Assembly: GCA_017398655.1 (NCBI GenBank)
Contig: JAFQFI010000008.1
Span: 1-60,472, forward strand
DNA: 60,472 nucleotides
Direction of reading: 5' to 3'
Origin: Clostridia bacterium
Lineage (GTDB): Bacteria; Bacillota; Clostridia; Christensenellales; UBA1242
The notes under the pieces were generated by a model. It searched no databases and had not been told where the DNA came from. It saw nothing but the letters and a program-made list of their open reading frames with translations. A program made the translations under genes and the position numbers. Positions 11,477 through 33,975 of the stretch are shown piece after piece (position 1 is the first letter of the stretch; each line of letters begins with the position of its first letter).

Positions 11477-11499
11477 TTTTATATCCTCACTTACAAAAA

Positions 11500-15198: not shown

Positions 15199-15317
15199 AC
15201 ATTAATAATATTATAAAAAACTTTTAAATTCAACAATATATATAAAAAGTAATTGTTTTCACCATATAAAAGATTTAATAAACATAATCCACATTTAATT
15301 TAGATTAATAAATTTTT

Positions 15318-15367
15318 ATAAAAAAAATCTAAGCCAAACACTTTTTCTATGTGTTCAACTTAGATTT
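15318..15367 (-). terminator. rho-independent terminator after the Mrr-cat gene
   Basis: Imperfect hairpin AAATCTAAG..AAACAC / GTGTT..CTTAGATTT, followed by a T-run on the minus strand. Confidence 0.55.
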
Positions 15368-15405
15368 GTCTTGGTGGAGTTCAACTAAGCTAAGTTAAAC
15401 TCCAT

Positions 15406-16755: not shown

Positions 16756-16890
16756 AAAAGTAAAACCTCTTTAATAAAAAGATAACATAGAATTAGATTT
16801 TTGTCATTTGATAGAATACTATTTTACTTTTGTAAATCAAAATATTGAAAAAATAGTTTCTATAAAACAATAAATAATTATACAAATAAT

Positions 16891-17964: not shown

Positions 17965-17992
17965 TATTCTTCCTTTGTCTTTAAATCAAAAT

Positions 17993-18022
17993 AAAAAAGC
18001 TTAAACCTTATTTGGTTTAAGC
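17993..18022 (-). terminator. terminator downstream of the displaced tRNA-Lys 3' end
   Basis: 9-bp hairpin GCTTAAACC-N6-GGTTTAAGC followed by a T-run on the minus strand. It sits where the native tRNA terminator would be expected. Confidence 0.6.
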
Positions 18023-18028
18023 AACTTG

Positions 18029-18077
18029 TGGTGGGCCACCGGGGACTCGAACCCCGGACCCACTGATTAAGAGTCAG
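18029..18077 (-). repeat. attL: displaced 3' portion of tRNA-Lys (49-bp direct repeat)
   Basis: Base-for-base identical to 32489-32537 (tggtgggccaccggggactcgaaccccggacccactgattaagagtcag). Confidence 0.9.
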
Positions 18078-18112
18078 AGAATAGTCCTTTATTTAAGCCA
18101 CTTATAGCGTTT

Positions 18113-18134
18113 AGTACCCAAATAAGTACCCAAA
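18113..18134 (+). repeat. tandem AGTACCCAAA arm-type sites (left arm)
   Basis: AGTACCCAAA occurs twice at a 12-bp period. The same pair occurs at 32384-32405. Confidence 0.6.
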
Positions 18135-18148
18135 AAAAGTCTTGCAGT

Positions 18149-18931
18149 TTATTTAAAAACCACAAGACCATTTTGTTGTACATGATATTGATTCTTCGAA
18201 TATATAGCTTTAATAAAGTCTTTTATATCAATACCTTTAAGGTGCCCTTCTTTATTTATTGTCACATTACAATTCTTTACATGAGCTCTCGACCAAGCCT
18301 TGCCTAAATTTATTGCATTTTCTTCAGAAATAATATCTTTTAGTAAATAAAAAACAGAATAACAATCATAAGACTTAACATTGTTCGGCATATTTAAAAT
18401 ATATTGCCTCGCGGATGAATCATGTGAAAGTAACGCAAAAATATCAGCGTCACCAATTCTATTTGCAATTGATATATTTAAAATTGTCATGATTTCCCCC
18501 ATGTTGTTTCCACTAGGTATATTTCTAACAATTTTATTCAACTGTATAATAAACATTTTTAACTTTGTTTCGTTCATACAAAGATTTTCTAATTGGCTAA
18601 AATAATTTTTATAAAAAGTATCACTTTTAGAAATTTCAATTGATATTTTACGAATCTCATCCAAAATAATATGTTTAATAGTTATATCATCAAAAAAATG
18701 CTTTAGGCCTTTTACAATTTCAAAATTGTCAACTATGCTTATTTTTTCTTCTTGATGATATTTATAAATTATTTTTAAAATATTAGGATTCTTTATTTCA
18801 TCAAGAACCTTTGAAACCATAATAAATTTATACGGAAGTTTTATAATTTCATCGAAAAATGTGGAAGAATTATTTTTTGCTTTTATTGTTTTATTTATAA
18901 AATCCGTATCTAAATATGCAACTTTACTCAA
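18149..18931 (-). CDS. PIN-like domain protein (putative nuclease effector)
   Basis: 260 aa with a TTG start overlapping the upstream stop by 8 nt. YLDTDFI, VLDEI and SHDSSA are spaced like PIN acidic residues. Tentative call. Confidence 0.4.
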   Translation of the reverse strand: MSKVAYLDTDFINKTIKAKNNSSTFFDEIIKLPYKFIMVSKVLDEIKNPNILKIIYKYHQEEKISIVDNFEIVKGLKHFFDDITIKHIILDEIRKISIEISKSDTFYKNYFSQLENLCMNETKLKMFIIQLNKIVRNIPSGNNMGEIMTILNISIANRIGDADIFALLSHDSSARQYILNMPNNVKSYDCYSVFYLLKDIISEENAINLGKAWSRAHVKNCNVTINKEGHLKGIDIKDFIKAIYSKNQYHVQQNGLVVFK

Positions 18932-19757
18932 CTGAATCTTTTTTAGTAATTTTTTTTAAAATTTCTTCCACTTTTAATTTTGTACTATTTGCTTTACTAT
19001 TACTGATAAACTGAAATTCCTCATTCTCACTTATGAGATAATCTAGATCATCCAAATCATAATAATTACTGCACTTTTGTTCCCATCTTTCAAAACGAAG
19101 TTTTATTATTACTTCATCTAATAATTTTATTGTCTCTTTGCCTATTCCTAAAAAAATTTTCAATTCTTTTTCACTGATTTTTTCTAATTCATATGCTCTT
19201 ATAACTGCAGTTTTATAAGGAACCATAAATGAATCCATTAATTTTTCAATATAAAAAACTTTTTCTTTTGATGTTTTTGGTTCTCTTTTACAAACAAGTT
19301 CAACCCTCTCTTTAGGCATTAGAAAACAAGAACTAAAAGCATTTGCCTTTTTATCGTTTATATTGCACTCAACTTCATTTGGATTATCCTTAAGTACATC
19401 TATTAAATTGTCATCCGTAGAATCTTCATGATTTTCTAGGAAATCAATAAAATGATAGAACTCATGAGCTAATGCTACATTTTGTTTGTTCATTGGAAAT
19501 TCTGAATTTATAACAATGAAAAATATTCCAGATATTTTATAAAACATACCCCATACTTGATCATCGTTAAAAGGAAGATATAATATTTTTAAACAAACAT
19601 TCTTTCTTTCTGCATATTCCTTTATAAATAATTTAAGATTATAAGCAATAGGTGTTAATTCTGAAATATTATAAAGAATCATGTTAGCTTTTTTTTCAAT
19701 ATCTCTAAATAAACTTTTATCAGAATAAAACAAACAATCTTTGATTTTAATAGACAT
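18924..19757 (-). CDS. ImmA/IrrE-family (M78, COG2856) zinc metallopeptidase
   Basis: 277 aa with the HExxH motif ALAHEFYHF. Its ATG directly abuts the stop of the upstream XRE gene, and the SD AAGGAGG lies inside that gene. Confidence 0.7.
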   Translation of the reverse strand: MSIKIKDCLFYSDKSLFRDIEKKANMILYNISELTPIAYNLKLFIKEYAERKNVCLKILYLPFNDDQVWGMFYKISGIFFIVINSEFPMNKQNVALAHEFYHFIDFLENHEDSTDDNLIDVLKDNPNEVECNINDKKANAFSSCFLMPKERVELVCKREPKTSKEKVFYIEKLMDSFMVPYKTAVIRAYELEKISEKELKIFLGIGKETIKLLDEVIIKLRFERWEQKCSNYYDLDDLDYLISENEEFQFISNSKANSTKLKVEEILKKITKKDSVE

Positions 19758-20108
19758 TTATGCCTCCTTATTATCATTTAAGTATTGTTGTTCAACAATA
19801 ATATCTGATAACTCAAAAATCAATTCAAAAGTTTTATTTGTCTCTTTTTTTGTAATCTCTCCCATAAGTTGAGCAGAAACTTTTTCTTTTAAAACTTTTC
19901 TTTGTCTTGTCAAATCTTCTATTTTACATGAAAAAAAATTAGCAATCTTTGCAAATTCGCTTGCTAATAAATTTCTCTTTCCTGCTAAAATTTTATTTAC
20001 TGTTTGTCTTGGCAAATCTAAAAACCTTCCTAGATCTGATTGTTTCTTCTTTTGTTTATTAAGTAAATCTAAAATATTTTGAGCAACCATTAAATCAAAA
20101 TTTTCCAT
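19758..20108 (-). CDS. XRE-family helix-turn-helix regulator
   Basis: 116 aa. QSDLGRFLDLPRQTVNKILAGKR is an HTH_3-type motif. Strong SD (AAAGGAGGG). Confidence 0.8.
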   Translation of the reverse strand: MENFDLMVAQNILDLLNKQKKKQSDLGRFLDLPRQTVNKILAGKRNLLASEFAKIANFFSCKIEDLTRQRKVLKEKVSAQLMGEITKKETNKTFELIFELSDIIVEQQYLNDNKEA

Positions 20109-20131
20109 AATTACTCACCCTCCTTTGGTAT

Positions 20132-20159
20132 TTTATATTAATTATTATGTCCTTGTCAA
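20132..20159 (-). promoter_or_regulatory. putative promoter of the XRE-ImmA-PIN operon
   Basis: TTGACA, 16-nt spacer, TATAAA on the minus strand just upstream of the SD. Confidence 0.4.
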
Positions 20160-20281
20160 TATTAAATATGCAAAATGTAACTAAATTAGTGACAAATGTA
20201 CATAAAAATTTCTTATTTAGAAGACATTTTTTAGTAAAAAAATTTTAATATAATCTAATAATTACTTCAATCTTTAGTGAC

Positions 20282-20320
20282 AAAAAAAATAAATCCAAAG
20301 ATTTTTTGGATTTATTTTTA
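20282..20320. terminator. bidirectional terminator downstream of the kinase gene
   Basis: Hairpin AATAAATCCAAA-N6-TTTGGATTTATT with A- and T-runs on either side. Confidence 0.65.
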
Positions 20321-20476
20321 AATATTTTCTTTGATTAAATCTCTATTTAATCTAAATATTAGATAACAAAATCAATTATAAAATTACATCAATTATAGAA
20401 AGAATTAAAAATCAGATAAAGTCTCTTATTAAGTCACTTATAAAGTTCAGTACAAAAATTTTAAAATTGTGTTTCA

Positions 20477-21610
20477 TTAAAAAGGCAAATCTTCATCTAT
20501 TTTAACTTTTACTTTAGACAATTTTGCTTTTATACTTTTTATTACAATTTCTTGAAAATGCCTATCTTTTCTTTCAAACCAATTTAAAAAATCTTTAACC
20601 AATGCTGTTTCTATTCTTATGCCATTTGAATATGCATAATTATTTTTCACAAAAATCGATATTAGACTGGAGTTTTCTATTAAAACATTCTCCAAACAAT
20701 TTTCTTCTAATAAATTCTCTAAACCGTTTATTATTTCATCAACATTATCGTTAATCTTTTGTTCTGAAGAATGGTGATCTAAAGCCAAAATCATGCTAGA
20801 TGAAAAATTTAAATAAATTTCTTTGTCTTTTTCTGTTATATCTAATCTTGTTAACTCTTTATGGTTTATTTTATTTAAAATATCTTCAAAAGAAGCAAAC
20901 CTTTTACTAGGATCAGTTTCCAACATCTTATTTAAAATTGTTTTATACTCAAAATTGTTTAAACTATTTTTTTTCAAAAGTCTACTAAACAATTCTGCAA
21001 GACAAAACATATCTGTTTTTGACGTGTATTTCCCTACATTTATTTCAGACGGTATTTTTTCCATTCCTCTTCTATCTATAACTTTATTTAAGCTATCTTT
21101 AGACATTGATGATTCAGAGAAATCTTTTCCCAAACCAAAATCTATTATTTTTACAACGCCATTTTTGTCAATCATAATATTATTTGGTCTAATATCTCTA
21201 TGAATTATGTTGTTTTTTTCTAAACAATTAAAGGCGTTAATTAATTGTATAAAAATTGAATTCGCATCAATTTCAATATCTTTTTTTGATAGATACTTGT
21301 CAATAGTTTCTCCGTCAATGTATTCCATTAATATAAACCCAGCATTGTATTCATCATATAAATAATAATTATAAATTCTCACTATGTTTGGATTATTAAG
21401 TTTGTACATTATTTTTATTTCTTTTTTAAACATATCATAAAAATATTTTATATTTACACCTTCTTGAGGAAGATATTTTTTACATACAAAAAGTTCTTCT
21501 AGAGAATTATCCCTTAGTAAAACTGTTTGCCCACAAGAACCTTTACCTAATTTTGCATTAACCATTGTATAACTTTTTGTCTTTATAAAATTAATTATTT
21601 CGTTTTCCAT
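20477..21610 (-). CDS. Hanks-type Ser/Thr protein kinase with unknown C-terminal domain
   Basis: 377 aa. Has LGKGSCGQ (G-loop), VCKKY, HRDIRPNN and IIDFGLGK motifs, followed by ~125 aa of unknown function ending in DEDLPF. Confidence 0.8.
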   Translation of the reverse strand: MENEIINFIKTKSYTMVNAKLGKGSCGQTVLLRDNSLEELFVCKKYLPQEGVNIKYFYDMFKKEIKIMYKLNNPNIVRIYNYYLYDEYNAGFILMEYIDGETIDKYLSKKDIEIDANSIFIQLINAFNCLEKNNIIHRDIRPNNIMIDKNGVVKIIDFGLGKDFSESSMSKDSLNKVIDRRGMEKIPSEINVGKYTSKTDMFCLAELFSRLLKKNSLNNFEYKTILNKMLETDPSKRFASFEDILNKINHKELTRLDITEKDKEIYLNFSSSMILALDHHSSEQKINDNVDEIINGLENLLEENCLENVLIENSSLISIFVKNNYAYSNGIRIETALVKDFLNWFERKDRHFQEIVIKSIKAKLSKVKVKIDEDLPF

Positions 21611-21640
21611 AACTTCTCCTTAATTTCACCATATCACAAT

Positions 21641-21680
21641 AAAAAAAGAGACTCAAGTATTTTTTTAAGTCTCTTTTTTT
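21641..21680. terminator. bidirectional terminator between the replication-like gene and the kinase gene
   Basis: Hairpin AAGAGACT...AGTCTCTT flanked by A- and T-runs. Confidence 0.6.
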
Positions 21681-22512
21681 ACAAATCTATTTCATCTAAA
21701 TTATCAAAAAGCGATTCTAACTCTTCAGTTGTATAGTTCCTGGAGATAAAAGCTTTGCGTTCTTCTTTTTGGTTTGGTTGTTTATAATCATCATAGTATC
21801 CAGTTATAATTTTATGGTAGTTGTCCATTAAGAAATCAAAATCAATTCTTGGATTGTTCTGAAGAAATAAACTTTTATCCAAAGCTGCAAGAAGAGAATC
21901 ACATTTAAAACCTACAGGAAGTAGTGTTAATCTATCCACTTTAAATCTTGGATATTTTTCGAATAAAGGAACAAGTCTCTCATCTATACTACAATTTATA
22001 TTACTACTATAATTATTATCTTTTTGAGTGTCTATTTCTATATTATATATACTACTAATATTATTATTTTTAGTATTTATATTATAATATGTTAACCAAC
22101 TTGGACATTTTTGACCAAGTTCACTTGCCAACTTGGACATTTTTGACCAAGTTAGAAGTAAAAAATATTTTTTCACTCCAACTGTTTCACTTTGCTTTTT
22201 AGATAGAACGTGGAGAGATTTTTTTGTAAGACAGATATTTATACCTGCAAAAAGATTTTGTTTCTTAAGATAACCGGCATTTACAAGCTTTGAAATTAAA
22301 CGTTTTAATTGTTTAACTTCAATGTTTAAAATTGGAAGTGCTTCAAGAACTTCTCTATAATTAAACGTTTTAAAAAGAGAAACTTCTTGGCCAGAAACAA
22401 ACTCTTCAGATATTATTGACTTGGAGAAATAAAAAAGCAGCAATAGTTCGTTTGCTGACAATTTATCTTTTAAAATTATTCTTTGTTGATAATCAAAAAC
22501 GTAATCCCACAT
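21679..22512 (-). CDS. winged-helix replication-initiator/replisome-organiser-like protein
   Basis: 277 aa. N-terminal wHTH-like segment, N/S/I-rich linker, acidic C-terminus, and internal DNA iterons. The functional call is an inference. Confidence 0.35.
   Translation of the reverse strand: MWDYVFDYQQRIILKDKLSANELLLLFYFSKSIISEEFVSGQEVSLFKTFNYREVLEALPILNIEVKQLKRLISKLVNAGYLKKQNLFAGINICLTKKSLHVLSKKQSETVGVKKYFLLLTWSKMSKLASELGQKCPSWLTYYNINTKNNNISSIYNIEIDTQKDNNYSSNINCSIDERLVPLFEKYPRFKVDRLTLLPVGFKCDSLLAALDKSLFLQNNPRIDFDFLMDNYHKIITGYYDDYKQPNQKEERKAFISRNYTTEELESLFDNLDEIDL
22096..22153. repeat. two identical 26-bp iterons, each with an internal dyad (candidate origin)
   Basis: ccaacttggacatttttgaccaagtt occurs at 22096-22121 and 22128-22153. 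Each copy contains the dyad AACTTGG-N10-CCAAGTT. The 32-bp period is not a multiple of 3. Confidence 0.7.
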
Positions 22513-22571
22513 AAAAAACCCTCTAATTTTTCGCGTAGTTAAATTAGGGTATTGATTTTAATACCCTTTTT

Positions 22572-22789
22572 TTATAAAAAAGTCGATTTTAAAGCATTTT
22601 CGAGTGCTACGCACACAAGAGCTGAACAGCGTTTTTCTAATCGGATTTTCGATAATATATTTGCTCGTCCATACTCTTGCATACATATCGCACTACAGCA
22701 ACAGGTAGCCCCATTTTGACCCACAGGGGCTAAAGCCGATCCTGTGGGTAAATAAATCAAAATGGGGCATTAACAAAGTTGCTGTAGTG
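22572..22789 (-). other. GC-rich structured non-coding block (candidate ncRNA, packaging signal or single-strand origin)
   Basis: Nested perfect stems of 12, 12 and 8 bp span 22691-22789. More small hairpins lie at 22572-22690. The composition is clearly more GC-rich than the surroundings. Confidence 0.55.
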
Positions 22790-22946
22790 TATCCCTCGTT
22801 ACCAGTTTTTCTAATTCTGTTATCTTTCCCAAGGTTGCTTTCAATATTACCTGTTTGTTGATTTTGTCAGATTTGTAAATTCCTACTTTTACCAATCTGT
22901 CAACTTCTTTCCTGCAGACCTTTCTTTCTTGAGATATTTCAGCCAT
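22770..22946 (-). CDS. small hypothetical protein (58 aa)
   Basis: ATG with AGGAGA SD. Translates to MAEISQERKVCRKEVDRLVKVG... It is below the ORF-track length cutoff, and its 3' end runs into the 5' arm of the hairpin. Confidence 0.45.
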   Translation of the reverse strand: MAEISQERKVCRKEVDRLVKVGIYKSDKINKQVILKATLGKITELEKLVTRDTLQQLC

Positions 22947-22958
22947 ATTTTTCTCCTT

Positions 22959-23261
22959 TTATTTTAAAATTAAAGTGAAAATAATAAAAATAGCAGTTAT
23001 TGCTAAATATAAAAAAATAATGAGTTTTTGTAACATTACTAATAATATATTTTTAGTTCTTTTTGCTTTAGTTAACATAATAAGAGAAGTAATAAAGCCA
23101 ACTACTAAAGTAAATAAAGCGTATGGCAGTAAAAATATTGACCCTAAAACGTCACCAGTTTTAAATGGTAAAATATTAGTAATTGGCAAAATAATTCTGA
23201 CTGAAAACGCCAAGCAAACAACTTCTATTAAAAAACCAATTAAAGATAATATTTTTCTCAT
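22959..23261 (-). CDS. small multi-pass membrane protein
   Basis: 100 aa from the ATG at 23261, with an AAGGAGA SD. About 3-4 hydrophobic helices. Confidence 0.6.
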   Translation of the reverse strand: MRKILSLIGFLIEVVCLAFSVRIILPITNILPFKTGDVLGSIFLLPYALFTLVVGFITSLIMLTKAKRTKNILLVMLQKLIIFLYLAITAIFIIFTLILK

Positions 23262-23293
23262 CAATTCTCCTTAAATAATTTTATTTACAAATT

Positions 23294-24754
23294 TTAAGCC
23301 AATTTTTTGACCTTGTAAGCCCTGTTTATAATTTCTTGGTTAAATAGTTGTTTTATTTCATCTTCGCTTAAAACGGGTGTTTTAAAGGTCTCTACGCTGG
23401 CAGATTGATATTGACAAGCATATAAATTTCTAAAAGTTCGGTCATCATAAAAACAATTTAAGTTTGGTGGTAAAACAAAAGATTTTACACGAGAGCCAAT
23501 TTGACCTTTATTTCCAACTTCAAGGTTTCCATAATCTTCATACTTGAATTTTCTAAAACCAACTGAATTAACATAAGTTCTTAAATCGGATATAATTTTT
23601 ACTTTAGTGTCTGTAGGTTCATAATTTTGAATAAACTCTTCAAGCCAAGAAACAATCCAATCTAATAGATAAGGTTTTAAAACGTGTTTTTGTTCTATCA
23701 TTTTTTTATTTTCTGCTGTAACACGTCTTGCAGAAATTAAAGTAGCATTTCCGTCTTGTTCTGTAGAAACTAATCTAAAATCCTTATACTGTCTTGTAAA
23801 TCTAAACATGTGGTCTATCAATTGGATTTTATTATTAGAAAGTTCTGGTGGAAGCATTGAACCAATTTCGTCCAAGAAAGCAACGCCTTTATATAAAAGT
23901 TTACTTTTTTGTAGTAGGTGATCTGCTGTAAATTTACAAGCAGGTTTTCCGTCTTTAAAAATTGGAATGTTACTCCAGAAACAAGGAATGCAATCGTTTT
24001 CGCTATAAAACTCATAAGCTTCAACAACTTCTATTACATGTTTTATTTTGACTTCATCTCCGGTGTACTTCCTTTGATATTCGACAATTGGAAAACCTTT
24101 TTTATCAAGGCCGATAACTTTATGTTCCAAATGAGTTCCAGAATAAATCCTTATTATTTTATTTTCCAACTTCCAATATTCAAATTGAAGATTTTTCCAT
24201 AATTTATCTGCAATTTCAATTGAGTCGTATATACCTGAAGACGACTTTCCTGCTCCAGGTTCTCCCATTCTTAAAACAACGTATTTTGACATACTTAAGT
24301 TTTCAGAATGTGATATTACAGATAGTTCATAAAATTCGTTAGAAACAAAATATATAAGGGTGAAAAAAGTCGCAACTGCTAAAGGAATAAAAAGTATTAG
24401 TTTTTTAGCTGTAAATCCAAAAGATGAAACATAAAGAATATCTAAAAGCAAAACTATAATAAATTCAATCAAATAATGAAAACGTGCTAATTTTTGAAGA
24501 AAAGATTTTTTTACTTTAAAAACCAAAACTTTATCTATTAAGTTTTCATCGTCTTCCGGTTCTGGTTCATAAAATTTTGTTTGAGCTTCTTCTTTCTTTT
24601 TAAAATACTTTGCATAATCTCTCCAGTGCTGGAGGGCAAATAAATCTTCTTTTAAATGTTTATCTGCCAACTTCCAACGCTGTTTTGTTTTTTGATTACC
24701 TTTGTATTTTGAATATGTTAATAATTTAGGTTCTGAATAAGTTAATAACTCCAC
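23294..24754 (-). CDS. membrane-anchored P-loop NTPase, Zot-like
   Basis: Probable GTG start at 24754 after GAGG. Two TM helices are followed by Walker A GEPGAGKSS, Walker B AFLDEIG and FRFTRQYKDFRLVSTEQD, resembling the Zot/pI family pattern. Confidence 0.55.
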   Translation of the reverse strand: MELLTYSEPKLLTYSKYKGNQKTKQRWKLADKHLKEDLFALQHWRDYAKYFKKKEEAQTKFYEPEPEDDENLIDKVLVFKVKKSFLQKLARFHYLIEFIIVLLLDILYVSSFGFTAKKLILFIPLAVATFFTLIYFVSNEFYELSVISHSENLSMSKYVVLRMGEPGAGKSSSGIYDSIEIADKLWKNLQFEYWKLENKIIRIYSGTHLEHKVIGLDKKGFPIVEYQRKYTGDEVKIKHVIEVVEAYEFYSENDCIPCFWSNIPIFKDGKPACKFTADHLLQKSKLLYKGVAFLDEIGSMLPPELSNNKIQLIDHMFRFTRQYKDFRLVSTEQDGNATLISARRVTAENKKMIEQKHVLKPYLLDWIVSWLEEFIQNYEPTDTKVKIISDLRTYVNSVGFRKFKYEDYGNLEVGNKGQIGSRVKSFVLPPNLNCFYDDRTFRNLYACQYQSASVETFKTPVLSEDEIKQLFNQEIINRAYKVKKLA

Positions 24755-24755
24755 A

Positions 24756-27062
24756 TTAAACCTCAAATTCAATAGAATCAATTGTTAATGATGTCACTTT
24801 TCCATCAGTAAAACCTACAGGATTTTCTTCACCAGAAGCGTAAACTTTATTTATTTTTTCATACGATTTTACATAGATTTCTAAAGAATTAGTATCTAAA
24901 TCAATTTTTGCAGAAAAATATAGTGGGAAATAATAATAAGTAGAATCATTATACTGTTCGTTAAAAACTCCCATATAAGCAAAACTTTTAGCTAATAAAG
25001 GAACTGTAACTAATTCATCTAATTTATAAAGACCACTTTCTTCATCAAAAGTTAAATTTAAATCATAATCAACTGATTTATTTACACTATAACTATTTAT
25101 TTTTGTATAAGAAGAACCAAAAGTTTTCACATAATTTACCGTTTCAAGATAATAAGAACTAATATTTATAGCAATATTTTTAAAATCAGTTATAGGTTGC
25201 TCCAAAGAAGATAAATCAACTGTGAAAGTTGTATATGTGGAATAATTACCAGTTCCACTAAAAGCAGTTCCATATGTTAAAGTTTTTGATGCAATTTTAT
25301 AAATTGGATAAAAATCAGTATCTGAAGTTATTGCTATTGTTGAAATATCTATTACTGTTTCTTGATCTGTTGACCAACCAACAAAAACATATCCTGTTCT
25401 ATCACTTAAGATAGGTGTAACAGAGTATTTGTCTGTTTCAATAAGTTGAGTTTCTAAAATTACTAATTCTTCATTTTCATCATAGCCATAGAAATTAACA
25501 ACGTTTAATCTTTCAAATTCAGCAATATATGTTGTATGGCTTGTAATTGCTTCAGATAACACGTCTGTTAATATTCCATTCTTTAACCAGCCATTAAATT
25601 TATATCCGTCCTTTATTGGCTCTGCAGGAAGTTCTGGATAATGATTTAATTCAATTATTTGAGAATTATGTATATCTTCACTATCCTCATCAAGTTTGAA
25701 TATAACGTCAAAACTATAAGTTATATTTGCAACTAAAACAGTATCTGCAACAATTGGTGTTGTTGTTATATCAAATACAACATCATTTGAGTACCAACCA
25801 TTAAATTTCCTGTAAACACTACTTTCAACTTCAATTTCTGAAGCGTACTCATTATTTCTTACAATTTGAGTGTCTTGAGTAGTATCTTCATAAATAAAAG
25901 TTACTGTGTGAAGTTTTGTAAATACAGCTACAAAAATTGTATCTTGTGTTATTTGAATTTCTGTAGGATTTACTTTATCAACACCATTCAAAGACCAATA
26001 GTCAAACTCATATCCGTCTTTTACTGGCTCTGCAGGAAGTTCCGGATAATAATTAAGTTCTATAATTTGAGAACTATGTAAATCTTCATCTACTTTAAAC
26101 TTAACATCATATCTGGTTGTTATATCAGCATAAAATGTTGTATTTGCAGAAAGTGGATAAGAACTTAATTCAACTTCTTGTTTTTCTCCGTCAACTTCAA
26201 CGTACCAATAATTGAAAGTTACATATTCAGTTGATTCTGGATTAACAAGTGCAGGTGTAGTTCCTTTATTAATTACTTGAATGTTATAAACGCTATTATT
26301 AAAATAGAACGTTGCAACAACTTGATTTTCGTTTTCTAAATTTTTGATATATTGTTCATAATATTCAATTGATTTTTTTAAGCTTTCAACTTCGTTTTTA
26401 AGTGAAGTTAAAGCTGCAGAATTATTTTCTGAAGCAGTTGTCATTTCAGAAATTTGTTTATTTAAAGTTTCAATTTGTAAATTCATATTTACAATTGTTT
26501 GAGTGTTTAAATCATTGGTTGATTGTAAAGAAGCATTTACTGTTTGAAGATTTGAAATTTGTTTCTGAAGTAGCTCTATTTCTTCAGATTTATCTTCATC
26601 ACTTGCTTTAAGTTTTGTAACTTCATTTTTTAAATTTGAAATAGTTACTTTGTTTTCTGCAATTATTTTTTCATTTTCAGCATTAATTGTTTCTAAAGAA
26701 AGTACTCTATTTTGATAAGTATTTCTTTCACTTGTTAACGTTGAAATTTTAGTTTGATATTCCCAATTATTGTCTGTTAATACTTTAATTTGAGATTGAG
26801 AATCTGCTATTTCTTTTTCATAAGTTGCTACAAGTTTTTTATAGTAACTTTCATTATTCTTGGCGTCAGAATAACCGTCATTGTAAGCATCAGAAGTTAT
26901 TTCATCTACTTGTGTTTGAGTATAAATAGAACTTCCTTTTATAAGAGCAAATAACCCCTCTTTATTATTAAAAGTCCACCAAACACCAAAAACTAACGCT
27001 CCCACAATCAGTACACAAACCAAGGAAAAAGCTATGCTTCTTGCGTTCTTATTTTTTTCCAT
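24756..27062 (-). CDS. N-terminally anchored surface protein: coiled coil plus repeated P.P.K.GY.F.GW (Listeria-Bacteroides-repeat-like) domains
   Basis: ATG at 27062 after GAGGAGG. TM helix, ~200 aa of heptad-like sequence, then repeats such as YPELPAEPVKDGYEFDYW and YPELPAEPIKDGYKFNGW. Confidence 0.6.
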   Translation of the reverse strand: MEKNKNARSIAFSLVCVLIVGALVFGVWWTFNNKEGLFALIKGSSIYTQTQVDEITSDAYNDGYSDAKNNESYYKKLVATYEKEIADSQSQIKVLTDNNWEYQTKISTLTSERNTYQNRVLSLETINAENEKIIAENKVTISNLKNEVTKLKASDEDKSEEIELLQKQISNLQTVNASLQSTNDLNTQTIVNMNLQIETLNKQISEMTTASENNSAALTSLKNEVESLKKSIEYYEQYIKNLENENQVVATFYFNNSVYNIQVINKGTTPALVNPESTEYVTFNYWYVEVDGEKQEVELSSYPLSANTTFYADITTRYDVKFKVDEDLHSSQIIELNYYPELPAEPVKDGYEFDYWSLNGVDKVNPTEIQITQDTIFVAVFTKLHTVTFIYEDTTQDTQIVRNNEYASEIEVESSVYRKFNGWYSNDVVFDITTTPIVADTVLVANITYSFDVIFKLDEDSEDIHNSQIIELNHYPELPAEPIKDGYKFNGWLKNGILTDVLSEAITSHTTYIAEFERLNVVNFYGYDENEELVILETQLIETDKYSVTPILSDRTGYVFVGWSTDQETVIDISTIAITSDTDFYPIYKIASKTLTYGTAFSGTGNYSTYTTFTVDLSSLEQPITDFKNIAINISSYYLETVNYVKTFGSSYTKINSYSVNKSVDYDLNLTFDEESGLYKLDELVTVPLLAKSFAYMGVFNEQYNDSTYYYFPLYFSAKIDLDTNSLEIYVKSYEKINKVYASGEENPVGFTDGKVTSLTIDSIEFEV

Positions 27063-29037
27063 AAACGTTCCTCCTCTTGTTACCTTTTTTGTAAAAACCA
27101 AATATCCAAAGAAGAAGTTGAATTGGTAAAGAAACAATCCAAACTACGCCTTTAAATAAAAGCTTTAAAATTGGTTTTAAAAATGGAATTGCTAATAAGC
27201 AAATAAGAATTACTATTGCAATAAGTATCCATGTGAAAGTATTTAAACTTTTATCTTCAAGAGTTACATCTACATCAGAGATAATATCAAAAGGACTTGA
27301 AACAACAGGAATTGTATAAAACATAGCGTCATTTGTGAGAGTTAATTGAATAATATCAAAATCTAAAAAAACATTCTCTTGTGCAGAACTCATTGCATAA
27401 TCAGTTGCCGGAAAGTAAAAATCTCCTAAACGTTTTTCATAAGAAACTTGCAAATTTGAATAAGAAAGATAATCTGTTTCTGCAAATCTAAATAAGAAAA
27501 CTGTTTCTTCATTTTCAGTTGCATTATTAAAATATTCTCTAAAATCATCTACATCATTTTTTGCAATAAGTAAATTTTCAGAAACTTTTGAATCACTTCC
27601 GATAACTTCATCTGAAGTAACGCTTTTGATTGGAGCAATTGTTTTATCTTCAATAGTATTAACAGTAAAGAATGTTTCCCACCATGAAGCACTTTCATTT
27701 AATTTTGTAATCTCGATATTATCTTCCACTGTAATATCAATTTTGTTATATCCCATTTTTCTATCTGAAGTTGCTGTAGATGTATTGTAGTATTTAGCAT
27801 TGAACTCTTCTTCTGATAAAAATAAATCTGCAGATATTTCTCTACCATTACAGTCAATAATTCCATTTTTAAAAATGCTATAGTTATAAATATAATTACT
27901 TAAATCTTCACTCTTTAACGTGTAATCGCCAACTATATCTTCAGCTAAAAAAAGATAATTTATTTCATTTAAAGTGTTAAGAGCATAATCAGAATCTGCA
28001 TTGTAAATAAATGAATCCTCTAACCATTCTTTATATGGCGTATAAAGAGGTGATCCAACGGTAGTCCAAAAACCTCCCGGTCTTAAAACAGCACAATCTG
28101 GAACGTCTCCGGAGTTGTGAGCAATATTTACTCCAATATAATCTTTTAAACTATTATAAACTTTGCTTGATGATGTTATAAAAATATCTTTTGTTGCATA
28201 TTCCCAAAATTCTGCCTTAACAGAATAAATACTTCCATATTTTTCAATAATTGAATTTGGCACACTAAAGTAAACACTGTTTATTTGAGAACCTTTAAAA
28301 CGTTCTTCCATTCCGTCAGAGTCAAATCTGTAATAAGAGTGCTTAACGTCTAACGTTAGAGTTTCAATTGCATTAGCTTCACATTTTAAAGTAGATTCTT
28401 CACTATCTCCACCAAAACCTTTAGCATATCCAGTAAAAGAATATGAAGTTGAAACGTTATACTCTGTAGCATTTTCTCTATCAGCAACGTTTAATTCAAT
28501 ACCAGAGATATGATAAGTTCTTTTTAAAGAATTAAGTTTTGTTAAAAAGATTGAAGTATCAGATATTTTGAATTTATAAAAAAGTTCAGCATAATCTCCT
28601 TGAGAACGGTCGCAATATTCCAGGTTAAATTTTTCATAATTTATTGGATTATTTTCTTCATCAAACTCTACAGCAATTTGAACTTTATTTGTTTTTATAG
28701 TATCAATTTCAATACCTTGAGGATTGTATATGTAAAGATATAAATTGTAATTATCTTGCATATCCAGTTTGTATGAATAGCAATATTCAACAAAGTTAAT
28801 TACCACCATTTTATCTTCAGATTGGTCAAACGGATATTTTAAAATATCAAAGTTTTCACAAGACAATAAATCTTCCATTACTCTTGTTTGGTCTAAATTT
28901 TTAACTTCATCTGAAGAAGTTGAAGCATAAACGTTTACAGAACTTATTGTTGGTATTAAAAAAGAAATGGCAAAAATAATTGCCATTAACAATAAAAAAA
29001 TTTTATTCTTCTTTTCTTTCTTTTTCATCATAAGCAT
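27049..29037 (-). CDS. large secreted protein with signal peptide and C-terminal TM anchor (spike/adsorption-like)
   Basis: 662 aa. N-terminal signal-like segment ending ...VYAS, and a C-terminal hydrophobic region with a basic tail. Confidence 0.55.
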   Translation of the reverse strand: MLMMKKKEKKNKIFLLLMAIIFAISFLIPTISSVNVYASTSSDEVKNLDQTRVMEDLLSCENFDILKYPFDQSEDKMVVINFVEYCYSYKLDMQDNYNLYLYIYNPQGIEIDTIKTNKVQIAVEFDEENNPINYEKFNLEYCDRSQGDYAELFYKFKISDTSIFLTKLNSLKRTYHISGIELNVADRENATEYNVSTSYSFTGYAKGFGGDSEESTLKCEANAIETLTLDVKHSYYRFDSDGMEERFKGSQINSVYFSVPNSIIEKYGSIYSVKAEFWEYATKDIFITSSSKVYNSLKDYIGVNIAHNSGDVPDCAVLRPGGFWTTVGSPLYTPYKEWLEDSFIYNADSDYALNTLNEINYLFLAEDIVGDYTLKSEDLSNYIYNYSIFKNGIIDCNGREISADLFLSEEEFNAKYYNTSTATSDRKMGYNKIDITVEDNIEITKLNESASWWETFFTVNTIEDKTIAPIKSVTSDEVIGSDSKVSENLLIAKNDVDDFREYFNNATENEETVFLFRFAETDYLSYSNLQVSYEKRLGDFYFPATDYAMSSAQENVFLDFDIIQLTLTNDAMFYTIPVVSSPFDIISDVDVTLEDKSLNTFTWILIAIVILICLLAIPFLKPILKLLFKGVVWIVSLPIQLLLWIFGFYKKGNKRRNVYGKK

Positions 29038-29131
29038 TTGCTCCTAATAAAATGAATCTTGCTAATTCATTTGAATTTGGCAATCTACCATATTTTTTAT
29101 AAAATTCATTTCTAAAATCTTGCTTTGACAT
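29003..29131 (-). CDS. possible 42-aa protein
   Basis: ATG 8 nt after GGAG (ggagaaaacaaa atg). Translates to MSKQDFRNEFYKKYGRLPNSNELARF... Overlaps the start of the 662-aa gene. Confidence 0.3.
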   Translation of the reverse strand: MSKQDFRNEFYKKYGRLPNSNELARFILLGANAYDEKERKEE

Positions 29132-29145
29132 TTTGTTTTCTCCTT

Positions 29146-29466
29146 TTAAAAATTAAAAATATTTCCTACTTTGGTAATAGTAAATTTTTGAAAAATACCT
29201 TTTATTTCATGTAAGGTATAGAAGATTTTTGCTTGGTCTTCTGTTTGAAAACCATAAGCTAATTTATCCTGGTTAAAAACAACTCTAAATTGTTTTGAAA
29301 TAATATCATTTTCGATTATTACTAAATCATTTGTAAAAAGCTCTTGTCCGTTGTAATCATACAGGTTTATAAACTCTGACAACGTTTCAGAAGTGTTTTC
29401 AAACAACTTGATTAAAATCCACTTTTTCTCTTGTTTAGAATAATCTTTTATTTTAATTTCCCTCAT
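29146..29466 (-). CDS. hypothetical protein (106 aa)
   Basis: Internal ATG at 29466 preceded by GGAG. Overlaps the upstream gene by 14 nt. Confidence 0.5.
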   Translation of the reverse strand: MREIKIKDYSKQEKKWILIKLFENTSETLSEFINLYDYNGQELFTNDLVIIENDIISKQFRVVFNQDKLAYGFQTEDQAKIFYTLHEIKGIFQKFTITKVGNIFNF

Positions 29467-29776
29467 AAACTTTCTCCAATTCTTCAGAGTTAGATGAAGT
29501 TGTTTTTTTATTTTCATCTATGTTTTGAGTAAGAATTGTTAAATAAACAACCATTCCGTTTTTCTCAAAATCTTTTTTAAGATGTAAAGCTTTTTCTAAC
29601 GTTAACCCTTTATACTCAATTTTTATTTCATCATCTAAATTATTAAAAACGTTAACGGAAATTTTATCTTTCTTGTTTATTTTTCTAATATCTAAAAATG
29701 TTGGAAAAGTTAATTCAAAATAAATTGTTAAAAATAAAACAAAGAAAGCTAATAAAAATGTTAAAAATACTTGCAT
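29453..29776 (-). CDS. hypothetical protein with N-terminal TM helix
   Basis: 107 aa with a hydrophobic N-terminus (MQVFLTFLLAFFVLFL). Confidence 0.5.
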   Translation of the reverse strand: MQVFLTFLLAFFVLFLTIYFELTFPTFLDIRKINKKDKISVNVFNNLDDEIKIEYKGLTLEKALHLKKDFEKNGMVVYLTILTQNIDENKKTTSSNSEELEKVYEGN

Positions 29777-29790
29777 TATTAACCTACCCC

Positions 29791-30078
29791 TTATTCAAAC
29801 ATGTAAATAATTTTGATTAGTAAAGTTACATAAACCAGAATTAAAGCACAGTTTAATAAAGTCATGATTGTTGATTTTGCCTTGACCGATTCTATTAAAC
29901 TTTTTAAAGCTGAAATAAAACCAATAACTTTTAAAACGATAAGTAAAATAATATTTAAAACTTTTAAGAAAACATCAGAATTGTTTATTTCTCCACCAAC
30001 CAAGAAAGCAAAAATAAGACAGATAAATGAAACAAAAATCAATATTTCTTTAGTTCCTGACTTTTGATAATTAGCCAT
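29791..30078 (-). CDS. small three-TM membrane protein
   Basis: 95 aa, strong SD (AAGGAGG), three hydrophobic helices. Confidence 0.55.
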   Translation of the reverse strand: MANYQKSGTKEILIFVSFICLIFAFLVGGEINNSDVFLKVLNIILLIVLKVIGFISALKSLIESVKAKSTIMTLLNCALILVYVTLLIKIIYMFE

Positions 30079-30109
30079 AAATTAACCTCCTTTTTCATAA
30101 GTTTCAAAT

Positions 30110-30361
30110 TTATACAAATTTTTTGCCAACACCATTTTTATCCAGGACAATAAATTTTCCTAAAGGACATTTTGGAGAGCAGAAATGATAATCAATCATC
30201 TCGCAGGACTTATCACAAAACCTATTTGGAAAATCAGAATCATCATCTAAAAATTTGCATTTAGAACAAATTGCAATAACCTTTTTAAATTCAGAATCTA
30301 ACTTGTTAAAGTTAAAACTTCCTGTTGGTGAATTGTTTGCATTTCCATAAATTATCTCCAT
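30110..30361 (-). CDS. small Cys-rich (putative zinc-binding) protein
   Basis: 83 aa from the ATG at 30361 after GGAGGAA. Cysteines are arranged as CxxC...CxxxC...CxxxC. Confidence 0.5.
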   Translation of the reverse strand: MEIIYGNANNSPTGSFNFNKLDSEFKKVIAICSKCKFLDDDSDFPNRFCDKSCEMIDYHFCSPKCPLGKFIVLDKNGVGKKFV

Positions 30362-30386
30362 AACTTCCTCCAAATTTTTTTTATTT

Positions 30387-30545
30387 ATCCAGAGAAAACG
30401 GTAAAGAGAGCAAAGTTCTCTCTGGATATATTTACGAGTTTTTCGTAAATATTACTTTAATATTTACAATATTTTCGTAAATAGTCAAGTGTTTTTACGA
30501 AAATGTTGAAATTATTTTAATTTTTTTTACAATATTCTCGAATAA
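30387..30545. promoter_or_regulatory. divergent switch region: dyad hairpin plus four phased operator-like repeats
   Basis: TTTAC(G/A)A half-sites start at 30431, 30463, 30494 and 30526. O1 is a perfect 8-bp-arm palindrome (ATTTACGA-N5-TCGTAAAT). A 9+3-bp dyad lies at 30387-30427. Confidence 0.6.
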
Positions 30546-30557
30546 GGGGGCAATACA

Positions 30558-30905
30558 ATGAATTTAAAAGAAATAAGAGAAAGAAAAAAAATAAAACAAG
30601 TAGAAGTTGCAAAAGCACTAAACTTACCAAATTCAACATATAACGGGTATGAAAAAGAAACGAGTCAACCTAATATCGAAACTATTATTAAATTAGCCAA
30701 ATATTTTAATGTTTCCACAGATGAACTTCTTGGAGTTTCAAAAACAAAAAATATCAATCTAACTGAAAAAAATGCTTTATTAGATGTTATAGATTCTCTT
30801 ACTGAAATTGAATGTCATAAACTTAAAATTTTTGCTGAAGGTTTAATTTCTAATAGAATTGAAAAAACACCAGCATTCAAAGTTTTAAAAGATGATAGAG
30901 AGTAA
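30558..30905 (+). CDS. XRE-family HTH regulator (repressor candidate 1)
   Basis: 115 aa. HTH_3 motif QVEVAKALNLPNSTYNGYEKE. Confidence 0.8.
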   Translation: MNLKEIRERKKIKQVEVAKALNLPNSTYNGYEKETSQPNIETIIKLAKYFNVSTDELLGVSKTKNINLTEKNALLDVIDSLTEIECHKLKIFAEGLISNRIEKTPAFKVLKDDRE

Positions 30906-30908
30906 AAT

Positions 30909-31220
30909 ATGAAATTAAAAGAAATAAGATTAAAACAAGGTTTAAAACAATATCAAGTTGCAGATTTCCTTAATACAACTCAACATACAATATCAAATTA
31001 TGAAAAAGGAACCAGTCAACCTAATATCGAAACTATTATCAAATTAGCTAAATATTTTAACGTTTCCACAGATGAACTTCTTGGACTTTCCCAAGCAGAA
31101 ACAAATGAAACAGTTTTAACAAACAAAATCAAACTTTTAAACGAAGAAGAACTTTTCAAGTTGAACGTATTTGCAGACGCACTACTTTCTCTTCGTGAAC
31201 ATGAGGAAAAAAATAAATGA
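30909..31220 (+). CDS. XRE-family HTH regulator (repressor candidate 2)
   Basis: 103 aa. HTH_3 motif. Shares the block SQPNIETIIKLAKYFNVSTDELLG with the upstream gene. Confidence 0.8.
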   Translation: MKLKEIRLKQGLKQYQVADFLNTTQHTISNYEKGTSQPNIETIIKLAKYFNVSTDELLGLSQAETNETVLTNKIKLLNEEELFKLNVFADALLSLREHEEKNK

Positions 31221-31415
31221 ATCAACAAACAACAGAATATATAAAAACAAGTTGCCTTAATTAAGCAACTTGCTGAAGATTTAGAAATATATATACTCGG
31301 TGCTGAAGAAAGCACCAAACCTGTACTAATTACTAACAATGTTGTACCTTTTAAAAAACTGAACACTGTAAGTGGCGTTTCAAACTCTGACTCATTAAAA
31401 GGAGTTGAAGAAGAA

Positions 31416-32375
31416 ATGCCAAATTATAGAAAAAGAAAAAACGGAATATGGGAAGGAAGACAATACATAAATGGGAAAAGTTTTTCTGCATATTCCAAAA
31501 ACCTTAAAACATGTAAACAAAAATTAAAAGAAAAAATTTCAAATATAACATCAAATTCATTAAATAAAAATCTGCTTGTAAGTGAATGGTTTTTAACCTG
31601 GGCTGAAGTTTACAAACAAAAAAATCTTAAGATAAAAACATTCAACTCTCTTTTAGGTTTAATTAAAAATCACATAAATAAACTATTCAGGAACATATCT
31701 TTACAAAATTTAACCGGGGATATAATTCAAAAAAAATTAACAGAACTAAAACCAAGCAGAACCACCAACCTAATTTGCACGTATTTAAACGCCGGGTTAG
31801 AAAAAGCTTTACAACTTGGTTATATAAAAAGAAACCCTTACAAATCAACTGAAATAAAAAAACATAAAGTTGGCAAAGGTAAAGCTTTTACATACCAAGA
31901 GCAAGTAAAGATAGTAAACGAAGTTATTGGTTCTGATATTAAAGATTTGTTTTTTATTTATGTTTTAACCGGGATAAGAAAAAACGAAATTTACAACATA
32001 ATCAGTTTTGATTATGAAAAAGAACAAATAAAAGTTATTAGAGAAAAGAGTGATAATAAAATAAAAACAATCTTTGTTAAAAAAGAAGTTATTTCAATAA
32101 TTGAAAATTTGCAGCTAACAAAAACTTCAAGTGATGTTTTTTATAAAAAATTCAAAAAGATTTTAAAACGTTTAAACGTTACCGGAACAGTCCATTCCTT
32201 AAGACACACTTACGCAACAAATAATTATTATCTTGGAACTCCAATAAAACATCTGCAACAGTTTATGGGGCACGAAGATATAGCATTAACTTACAATATT
32301 TATACTGATTTTGATGAAGAATTAACAAAAGAAAAAATTGTTAAATTATATAATAATTTATATTACACTTTTTAG
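31416..32375 (+). CDS. int: tyrosine recombinase (phage-type integrase)
   Basis: 319 aa. C-terminal HSLRHTYAT...GHEDIALTYNIYT fits the R..H-x-x-R..H..Y catalytic pattern. Adjacent to the att site. Confidence 0.85.
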   Translation: MPNYRKRKNGIWEGRQYINGKSFSAYSKNLKTCKQKLKEKISNITSNSLNKNLLVSEWFLTWAEVYKQKNLKIKTFNSLLGLIKNHINKLFRNISLQNLTGDIIQKKLTELKPSRTTNLICTYLNAGLEKALQLGYIKRNPYKSTEIKKHKVGKGKAFTYQEQVKIVNEVIGSDIKDLFFIYVLTGIRKNEIYNIISFDYEKEQIKVIREKSDNKIKTIFVKKEVISIIENLQLTKTSSDVFYKKFKKILKRLNVTGTVHSLRHTYATNNYYLGTPIKHLQQFMGHEDIALTYNIYTDFDEELTKEKIVKLYNNLYYTF

Positions 32376-32383
32376 CGTTTTTT

Positions 32384-32405
32384 AGTACCCAAATTAGTAC
32401 CCAAA
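32384..32405 (+). repeat. tandem AGTACCCAAA arm-type sites (right arm)
   Basis: AGTACCCAAA occurs twice at a 12-bp period, the same arrangement as 18113-18134. Confidence 0.6.
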
Positions 32406-32488
32406 TTTTTAACCTGGAGCAATAAAAAAACGACTTTCAGGTATTAACCTAAAAATCGCTGCTTTCCTTTATTTTAAAGGAGTTTATT

Positions 32489-32564
32489 TGGTGGGCCACC
32501 GGGGACTCGAACCCCGGACCCACTGATTAAGAGTCAGTTGCTCTACCAACTGAGCTAGTGGCCC
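32489..32564 (-). tRNA. tRNA-Lys (anticodon CTT); its 3' 49 nt form attR
   Basis: Reverse complement is GGGCCACTAGCTCAGTTGGTAGAGCAACTGACTCTTAATCAGTGGGTCCGGGGTTCGAGTCCCCGGTGGCCCACCA. It folds as a cloverleaf with CTT in the anticodon loop. Confidence 0.9.
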
Positions 32565-32759
32565 AAATAAAATATTAAGTTTTATCTCACACAAAAATTA
32601 ATAAAAAACATTAACTTTTATGCGAGATAAATTTTAATATGATTTTATTAAAAAGTCAACACTTATTTGTTTGTTTTACCTTGTAAGTTTTTAAAACACT
32701 ACTGCCCAACTTTTAAGTTGGTTAAAATTAAAATTTAAAAAACAACGCAAATAAAAATT

Positions 32760-33281: not shown

Positions 33282-33391
33282 TTTATATCACCCCTTAGGG
33301 CAATATAATAACACACCTTTTGGGTTTTATTAAGCATTTTTTTGTTTTTTCTATTTACTTATTATTAATTTTATTTTATTATATATACATT

Positions 33392-33928: not shown

Positions 33929-33975
33929 ACCGACATACTAAATTGCAAATAAAAAATTAAAGGATAAAAAGAAAA

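Follow-up and report, generated by a model that had tools for sequence, protein, structure and literature searches.

The 60,472-nucleotide stretch of DNA analysed here (the window; contig JAFQFI010000008.1 of the Clostridia bacterium assembly GCA_017398655.1) contains an element that has inserted into a gene for tRNA-Lys(CTT). We define this element as positions 18078-32488 plus one 49-bp core, 14.4 kb in all. Its insertion into tRNA-Lys is real and firmly supported, and as an event it is ordinary, a textbook case. Judged by its genes, the element is probably a temperate, non-lytic, tail-less prophage of the filamentous-phage-like (inovirus-like) kind, with an ATPase of the Zot/pI type and swappable cargo.

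Integration into tRNA-Lys

The element is bounded by two copies of the core. Positions 18029-18077 and 32489-32537 are identical at 49 of 49 bases, the identity extends 0 bases past either edge, and a 37-nt part of the core, searched for with up to three mismatches allowed, was found at the two repeat positions only (100 shuffles gave 0 matches). The right copy lies within an intact tRNA-Lys(CTT) on the reverse strand (32489..32564; called by ARAGORN and by Rfam, 72.3 bits), of which it forms the 3′ 49 nt, tRNA positions 28-76, spanning the anticodon stem to the CCA end; this is the proximal core (attL). The left copy, on the same strand, is the distal core (attR), in which tRNA-Lys positions 28-76 recur out of place; it scores as a partial tRNA only (25.6 bits, model positions 8-63). 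Directly after this displaced 3′ end comes a reverse-strand terminator hairpin with a 9-bp stem and a T-run (17999..18022), probably the original terminator of tRNA-Lys. A preliminary description of this DNA had reported the perfect repeats, the intact tRNA on the right and the displaced tRNA end with its terminator on the left; these observations held up, and the coordinates that it gave for the terminator (17993-18022) were essentially right.

A tyrosine integrase adjoins the intact tRNA, also as previously described. The gene (31416..32375, forward strand; PF00589 and PF14659) is intact, encodes the catalytic residues R188, H260-x-x-R263, H286 and Y293/296, and converges on tRNA-Lys with its stop codon 113 bp from the core. 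A 23-bp repeat dimer of the arm type lies on either side of the core: TAGTACCCAAATAAGTACCCAAA at 18112..18134 (forward strand), 35 bp inside the left core, and TAGTACCCAAATTAGTACCCAAA at 32383..32405 (forward strand), between the integrase gene and the core. Exact AGTACCCAAA units occur in the window at 18112-18134 and 32383-32405 only, which makes these dimers candidate arm-binding sites of the integrase. The integrase inserted the element into tRNA-Lys(CTT) at its 3′ part, which runs from anticodon stem to CCA end. The element supplies a replacement 3′ end, so that tRNA-Lys stays intact, and the original 3′ end and its terminator were displaced by 14.46 kb. In the excised circle, the arm dimers would come together around the core, where they may serve as integrase arm sites. 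The GC content of the element (about 22-30%) is like that of the host, and the window has ~27% GC throughout, without a compositional anomaly. The anticodon stem-to-CCA block, the integrase beside a restored tRNA and the arm repeats flanking the core are shared with tRNA-targeting tyrosine-integrase prophages and islands generally and are in no way unusual; the tRNA sublocations used by integrases were reportedly classified by Williams in 2002.

An empty tRNA-Lys site with the same flanks was found in two long contigs that were reached via the glutamine synthetase cluster, which bears out the earlier claim of an integrated element. These contigs, L028 (an ENA scaffold) and L030 (NCBI GCA_017456305.1, 'Clostridia bacterium'), align with the window at 87% identity over 1531-15240 and at 94.5% over 32489-36367. 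Each has a single, identical tRNA-Lys(CTT), followed by its own terminator and two unrelated genes; no integrase or element was found at tRNA-Lys in either. On the right, their homology with the window breaks off exactly at 32489, where the tRNA has its 3′ end. Between the shared flanks the window holds 17.2 kb (15241-32488), made up of a 2.8-kb islet and the 14.46-kb repeat-bounded element, compared with 2.66 kb in L028 and L030. These contigs belong to another species (87-94% identity), and the ~2.7 kb beside their tRNA is unlike the left flank of the window, so the exact attB of this strain is not seen in them. In a more distant relative, L027, found by scanning JGI metagenomes with the core, tRNA-Lys is likewise unoccupied and the immediate flanks differ. 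Logan contigs at the site all end inside the tRNA or the core and are uninformative on a strain-level empty site, as are the mostly short contigs, breaking inside the tRNA, that exact look-ups of the flanking proteins returned.

The inserted state recurs as well. The NUDIX-tRNA-integrase junction of the window was found in another sample (L002), and a 14,221-bp Logan contig from a third sample (L010) is the same element, with the core at both ends and 97% identity to the window across 21621-30435.

An ATPase of Zot ancestry

Pfam was run on all 18 open reading frames (ORFs) of the element, and PHROGs, PADLOC and NCBIfam each on a subset of ten. All ORFs are intact. Eleven of the 18 had no Pfam match above the curated cut-off, and the ten scanned with PHROGs received no annotation from it. 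The scans identified the integrase, three XRE regulators (HTH_3), an M78 peptidase (PF06114), a Ser/Thr kinase, Flg_new repeats and a weak YopX-like match, and nothing else. The regulators and the ImmA-like peptidase named in the preliminary description were thus recovered; its 'replication-like' genes were not confirmed by domain scans, and its statement that every gene between the repeats is element-like could be verified only in part. No capsid (of the HK97 fold or any other), portal, terminase, tail or lysin gene and no other hallmark of Caudoviricetes was found in any ORF with Pfam, PHROGs or NCBIfam, so that the genes it had called morphogenesis-like deserve the name in the filamentous-phage (Zot/pI) sense only. 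By hydropathy, the unannotated core is a membrane module, formed by proteins of 95, 107, 662, 793, 495 and 101 amino acids.

The 495-residue member of this module is a membrane-anchored P-loop ATPase of the Zot/pI family (23294..24781, reverse strand) with two N-terminal transmembrane (TM) segments, a Walker A motif GEPGAGKS (173) and a Walker B motif FLDEIG (302). A word-indexed search retrieved 14 close homologues, all metagenomic and all unannotated, and a full HMM search with the ATPase retrieved 296 cluster representatives at E <= 1e-3; the wider family comprises about 300 clusters at 50% identity. When hhalign was used to compare the ATPase family with the Zot of bajarodino virus 71, a member of Inoviridae with a circular genome of 5.3 kb, the alignment had a probability of 96.3% and an E value of 1.7e-9. 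Pfam Zot (PF05707) was matched independently by 8 of 53 distant family members (best 5e-9), and an IMG/VR relative, L031, scored above the Zot gathering score. Among GenBank phages, the ATPase matched only genes annotated 'Zonula occludens toxin' in the small circular genomes of two Inoviridae from rodent faeces, bajarodino viruses 71 and 16 (PQ006122 and PQ006182; 5.3 and 8.5 kb), which are the only annotated records with a detectably homologous Zot (tblastn 8e-3). The bajarodino Zot and the element ATPase share IPCLxSNIP and hhhhDEIG motifs and an N-terminal TM segment before the P-loop, a feature of 38 of 42 family members. Foldseek searches with a model of the ATPase (pLDDT 65, modest) returned Inoviridae Zot, the P-loop protein of Plasmavirus L2 and RecA-like folds. 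Scans of IMG/VR with the ATPase alignment, the alignment of the 277-residue protein described below and the 49-bp core gave nothing. Taken by sequence and profile comparison, the ATPase shares ancestry with the Zot family. Placing a TM segment at the N terminus, ahead of the P-loop, departs from the canonical pI layout.

The remaining genes of the module lie with the ATPase in a leftward operon on the reverse strand. Its first gene encodes an 87-residue Cys-rich protein (30110..30373), followed by a highly conserved 95-residue three-TM protein (29791..30078; hydropathy and relatives), a candidate virion or membrane structural protein, and by a 107-residue protein with one N-terminal TM segment by hydropathy (29453..29776). 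A weakly YopX-like protein (29146..29517; PF09643 at 1.7e-3, below the curated cut-off) is kept in relatives. Next come a 42-residue soluble ORF (29003..29131), also called as a gene in L010, and a 662-residue protein (27049..29037) that carries a signal peptide, a TM anchor at the C terminus and a basic tail. The 662-residue protein had no Pfam, PHROG or NCBIfam match; its predicted topology, repeated in the relatives L011, L013, L016 and L018, is that of a filamentous-phage pIII or an envelope spike. The 42-residue ORF upstream of it was considered as a coat protein and rejected because it is hydrophilic. Downstream lies a 793-residue surface protein (24756..27137) that is anchored by an N-terminal TM segment and contains a coiled coil and Flg_new (Listeria-Bacteroides) repeats (2.5e-21); it is a candidate host-recognition protein, and its counterparts in relatives range from 602 to 1205 residues. 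The ATPase is followed by a 101-residue protein (22959..23264), predicted to span the membrane three times and kept in L010 and L016, and by a conserved 58-residue soluble basic protein (22770..22946). Gene calls in L010 indicate that the surface protein probably starts at the ATG at 27062 (768 residues) and the ATPase probably at the GTG at 24754 (486 residues); with these revised starts (regions 27062-27137 and 24752-24781) the genes are tightly packed or overlapping, as is typical of an operon. The small membrane proteins, the pIII-like anchored protein, the surface-repeat protein and the Zot/pI-type ATPase may together assemble particles and extrude them through the membrane.

Related elements

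The architecture is conserved. Relatives share an order of recombinase, repressor, small genes, three-TM protein, anchored protein of 400-660 residues, surface protein of 600-1200 residues and ATPase, and then small proteins and a winged-helix protein of ~280 residues. They keep the membrane-protein and ATPase module at 45-60% identity, with conserved TM topologies. Their hosts are labelled Clostridia, Bacilli or Lachnospiraceae, and their sites include tRNA-Val (L011), tRNA-Ala (L024) and tRNA-Lys (L026). The recombinase is a tyrosine integrase in L011 and L024 and a serine recombinase in L013 and L031; L013 also encodes an S24 LexA-like repressor.

One relative is circular. L016 is an 11,246-bp contig without host genes, and its 55-bp terminal overlap indicates that it closes on itself. 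It carries int, an XRE gene, a large protein with LRR_5 repeats and, adjoining int, a tRNA 3′ fragment (attP) that is bordered on both sides by GAGTAGAAT dimers, the same design as the arm repeats of the window.

In L031 (IMGVR_UViG_3300002469_000208, 9878-18691), the Zot-domain ATPase is followed by an initiator of the rolling-circle type, with Rep_OBD and a superfamily 3 (SF3) helicase, and then by a complete type I restriction-modification system (HsdM, HsdS, HsdR) as cargo; the serine recombinase and a tRNA-Ser are at the far end.

A proposed prophage-style switch and a candidate replication region

Between the leftward operon and the rightward repressor genes lies a divergent regulatory region (30374..30557) with an imperfect inverted repeat and three exact TTTTCGTAAA motifs (at 30440, 30472 and, in reverse, 30494). 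These are the only three exact copies in the 60-kb window, and they are candidate operators. On the forward strand follow two XRE/cI-type HTH regulators in tandem, copy 1 at 30558..30905 (HTH_3 6e-17) and its paralogue, copy 2, at 30909..31220 (HTH_3 2e-18), which share a 103-nt block of 90% identity (30648-30750 and 30999-31101). The two cI-like repressors would thus face the leftward operon across an operator-bearing region, in the manner of a cI/Cro-like switch. In L010, the XRE repressors are only 67-73% identical in amino acids to those of the window, and one differs in length; the immunity region therefore varies between elements that are otherwise 97% identical.

At the other end of the operon, a conserved 277-residue protein (21679..22512, reverse strand) has an N-terminal MarR-like winged helix according to AlphaFold2 (AF2) and Foldseek. 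All nine of its homologues are in related elements. The AF2 model is of low confidence (pLDDT 59), and its best PDB matches are winged helix-turn-helix proteins of the MarR type. The protein had no Pfam, PHROG or NCBIfam match, and no Rep domain was found by Pfam on all members, a PDB profile search or AF2 and Foldseek. We considered it as a recognisable replication initiator and rejected that assignment: homologue, Pfam, PDB-profile, AF2 and Foldseek searches gave a MarR-like winged helix only. Its position matches that of Rep in L031, and on that positional ground it is a candidate replication initiator or organiser.

Just upstream of the 277-residue gene is a 257-nt structured non-coding region (22513..22769, reverse strand) that folds far better than its shuffles (z = -5.4 on both strands) and contains a two-tier hairpin at 22707-22769. 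Across the relatives L011, L013 and L018, 10 of the 20 pairs of this hairpin show compensatory changes. The hairpin region is a candidate origin, packaging signal or small RNA, and the 62-residue ORF that it contains (22572-22760) is probably spurious and not a gene. The structured DNA and the winged-helix protein downstream of it may together serve replication.

Exchangeable cargo

The left third of the element encodes proteins with matches to defence families, all on the reverse strand. A Ser/Thr protein kinase (20477..21610; Pkinase 1.4e-30) matches PADLOC mad6 at 1e-36 and PD-T4-6 at 3e-32; the latter match covers the kinase domain only. By these matches the kinase is a candidate anti-phage gene. 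Next to it are a third XRE-family HTH protein (19758..20108; HTH_3, PADLOC PDC-M69A 7e-13) and its partner, an ImmA/IrrE-type Peptidase_M78 (18924..19757; PF06114 3.8e-10, PADLOC PDC-M69B 1e-28). Co-transcribed with these two genes is one for a 260-residue protein without a family match (18149..18931), a candidate effector or toxin. A terminator-like hairpin at 18138..18169 (reverse strand) marks the end of this last gene of the element.

The cargo is variable. In L010 the kinase is absent and other genes are in its place, the XRE/M78/260-residue module is 74% identical, and the 260-residue protein itself 56% identical, compared with 97% for core genes; the left third of the element is therefore an exchangeable cargo region. 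Going by family matches, the kinase and the XRE/M78/260-residue module of the window would probably guard the lysogen against other phages. PADLOC gave no matches for the alternative cargo or for the tRNA-adjacent genes of relatives.

Variation beside tRNA-Lys

Between the element and a conserved radical-SAM gene, the islet (15241-18028) holds genes for an Mrr-type nuclease (15406-16755) and for a RelA/SpoT-like protein (16891-17964), the latter matching PADLOC PDC-S33 at 2.5e-101. In its place, L028 and L030 hold the two unrelated genes (444 and 316 residues; no PADLOC match). Replacement of the islet in these contigs indicates that the DNA downstream of tRNA-Lys is a variable hotspot of the defence type, independent of the element.

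Two further contigs differ at this locus. At 1007-1141 of L006 (ENA ERZ27302496 k141_1890328), next to a NUDIX protein identical to that of the window, the tRNA-Lys(CTT) has the 3′ acceptor strand ACAGCCC, which leaves three mismatched pairs with the 5′ strand GGGCCAC, and a different terminator and gene start follow. Possible explanations of this site are a junction formed with some other element, a third hotspot variant and a chimeric assembly. In L027 (JGI Ga0310786_10001678, 12850-12990), a second tRNA-Lys-like 5′ half stands beside the unoccupied tRNA-Lys and is followed by a GC-rich insert of ~100 nt and a tRNA-like 3′ end, without an ARAGORN call.

Comparison with filamentous phages

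Operational criteria for integrated inoviruses were set out by Roux et al. 2019 (PMC6813254), and by these the element is a putative integrated inovirus: it has a pI-like ATPase, tRNA att sites beside an integrase and short unannotated genes. It resembles the cryptic integrated inoviruses of the Tubulavirales (PMC6813254) in that a pI/Zot-type ATPase is the sole recognisable hallmark, in its small membrane proteins and mostly unannotated short genes, in its tRNA direct repeats beside the integrase, and in its toxin-antitoxin-like and regulatory cargo. Unlike theirs, its ATPase has diverged beyond the reach of Pfam Zot and has N-terminal TM segments as its anchor. It also differs from characterised filamentous phages in having two very large surface proteins (662 and ~770 residues). 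Characterised Inoviridae and Plectroviridae differ from it in Rep, as no HUH Rep was found in its ORFs; the relative L031 has Rep_OBD and an SF3 helicase. Bajarodino virus 71, for its part, is about a third the size of the element, has its own 'replication initiator protein' and lacks an integrase, and its other proteins do not match the element, save for a marginal XRE-type match (E 0.003).

Several observations weigh against an inovirus-like prophage. At 14.4 kb the element is larger than characterised filamentous phages, which span ~4-11 kb (10.64898/2026.09.15.751708). The window ATPase itself had no Pfam, PHROG, NCBIfam or PDB sequence match, its link to Zot runs through a profile comparison over ~90 columns and through distant relatives, and the structure models, at pLDDT 65 and 59, are modest. 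No HUH or rolling-circle (RCR) Rep domain was found in any ORF, and no single-stranded-DNA-binding protein or excisionase was recognised in the element. A simple hydropathy scan found no major coat protein of the classic kind, with 30-90 residues and a single TM segment; the 95- and 101-residue proteins (three TM segments each) and the 107-residue protein (one, N-terminal) do not fit that definition. No close relative of the element was found in IMG/VR or among GenBank phages, and neither an attP nor an attB junction of this very copy was seen in the contigs searched. With these points counted, we still regard an inovirus-like identity as probable: the element is most likely a divergent variant of the filamentous-phage-like kind, from a family that is barely described.

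Alternative explanations

A non-viral integrative element, namely a mobilisable island or a conjugative one resembling actinomycete integrative and conjugative elements (AICEs), is unlikely. Its P-loop protein would be an FtsK/HerA-superfamily ATPase that pumps DNA to a recipient, and the surface proteins would be adhesins. An N-terminal TM segment followed by a P-loop is indeed DNA-translocase-like, the cell-surface repeats of the large proteins (Flg_new, and LRR_5 in L016) are typical of adhesins, tRNA integration is common among islands, and the lack of a recognised coat protein or Rep fits as well. Domain scans of the element ORFs, however, detected no relaxase, coupling protein (VirD4 or FtsK type), type IV secretion system, FtsK_SpoIIIE or TraB-type domain, and tblastn of the ATPase against 72,556 plasmids gave no match. 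The only annotated relatives of the ATPase are Zot proteins of small circular inovirus genomes, which have the same N-terminal TM topology, and the cI/Cro-like switch, together with the S24 LexA-like repressor of L013, is of prophage style.

We consider it improbable that the element is the provirus of an enveloped, budding, pleomorphic virus of the plasmavirus or pleolipovirus type, with the three-TM protein as membrane protein, the 662-residue protein as spike and the P-loop protein as NTPase. Pleolipoviruses and Plasmavirus L2 encode, in this order, a small multi-pass membrane protein, a protein that has both a signal peptide and an anchor at the C terminus, and an NTPase; the gene pattern of the element matches this layout. 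Plasmavirus L2 (from Acholeplasma; L13696) is, like the element, temperate and low in GC, and its genome of ~12 kb has genes for an integrase, for large envelope proteins with signal peptides and for a P-loop protein (ORF3), as well as an XRE-type ORF close to attP. The related elements, at 11-15 kb, are close to the 11.97 kb of L2, no single-TM coat protein was found in ours, and Foldseek matched the ATPase model to L2 ORF3 (P42538) at E 1.6e-4. Against this, the profile comparison with L2 ORF3 was non-significant (probability 1% and 11%), and the significant sequence link goes to inovirus Zot. The host of Plasmavirus L2 has no cell wall; the Clostridia, Bacilli and Lachnospiraceae that harbour the present family are presumably walled, which would make budding hard. 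Membership of Plasmavirus L2 itself was dropped after all proteins and profiles had been compared: the XRE ORF alone matched, and the Foldseek match is one of a generic P-loop fold. The matching L2 ORF (5072-5260, reverse strand; tblastn 1.5e-11 to the window XRE) is unannotated and overlaps the annotated putative attP.

Equally hard to credit is a phage satellite, similar to the phage-inducible chromosomal islands (PICIs), or a decayed cryptic remnant, helper-dependent or immobile and kept for its useful defence cargo. Such an origin would suit the missing capsid, packaging and replication genes, the defence-like cargo and the unobserved attP junction of this copy. It sits poorly with ORFs that are all intact, with catalytic residues present in the integrase, with perfect att repeats, with a core conserved at 97% between samples while cargo is exchanged, and with a circular relative; genes for terS, capsid remodelling and primase were not found. 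That relatives retain the membrane-protein and ATPase module argues for selection on the module, and against a satellite or remnant.

There is next to no chance that the repeat is a conserved chromosomal duplication of a tRNA 3′ end unrelated to insertion, the alternative named in the preliminary description, because L028 and L030, with the same flanks, have a single tRNA and no element and their homology ends at 32489; the repeat, moreover, ends exactly at the tRNA 3′ terminus with the integrase abutting it, and nothing was found in favour of a duplication.

Discussion

The inovirus-like prophage that we favour has an architectural parallel in another phylum. The Dehalococcoides IME1 elements, of 21-28 kb, encode a primase-helicase and a resolvase, are reportedly restricted to Chloroflexota and have recently been put forward as viruses of a new lineage, either budding or filamentous (bioRxiv 10.64898/2026.09.15.751708). 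Compared by their described architecture, the two have in common that circles are seen, a tyrosine recombinase, a lambda-like repressor, a pI-like ATPase beside proteins with TM segments or signal peptides, adhesion-domain proteins, a YopX-like protein, accessory defence-like genes and the lack of tailed-phage hallmarks. It is possible, though we advance it only tentatively, that the element and its relatives make up a viral lineage of gut Clostridia that has yet to be described, temperate, non-lytic and tail-less, with genomes of 11-15 kb that may be double-stranded, a Bacillota counterpart of the IME1 viruses. In such viruses, an anchored Zot-type ATPase would assemble particles at the membrane together with three-TM, pIII-like and hypervariable surface proteins, the covarying hairpin would be the origin or the signal for packaging, and defence cargo would be exchanged in a slot reserved for it.

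In gut Firmicutes, the detection of tail-less phages that are shed chronically is badly deficient, since these phages do not have the usual marker genes, and the unannotated core proteins of the present element match no curated family model. The window provides a complete, cleanly bounded reference copy, with its att and arm sites, regulatory switch, conserved core and cargo slot. Set beside L010, it shows that defence genes are exchanged within this slot, and the flank of tRNA-Lys is itself a variable defence islet. If they are shed without lysis, such elements could move defence genes among uncultured gut Clostridia.

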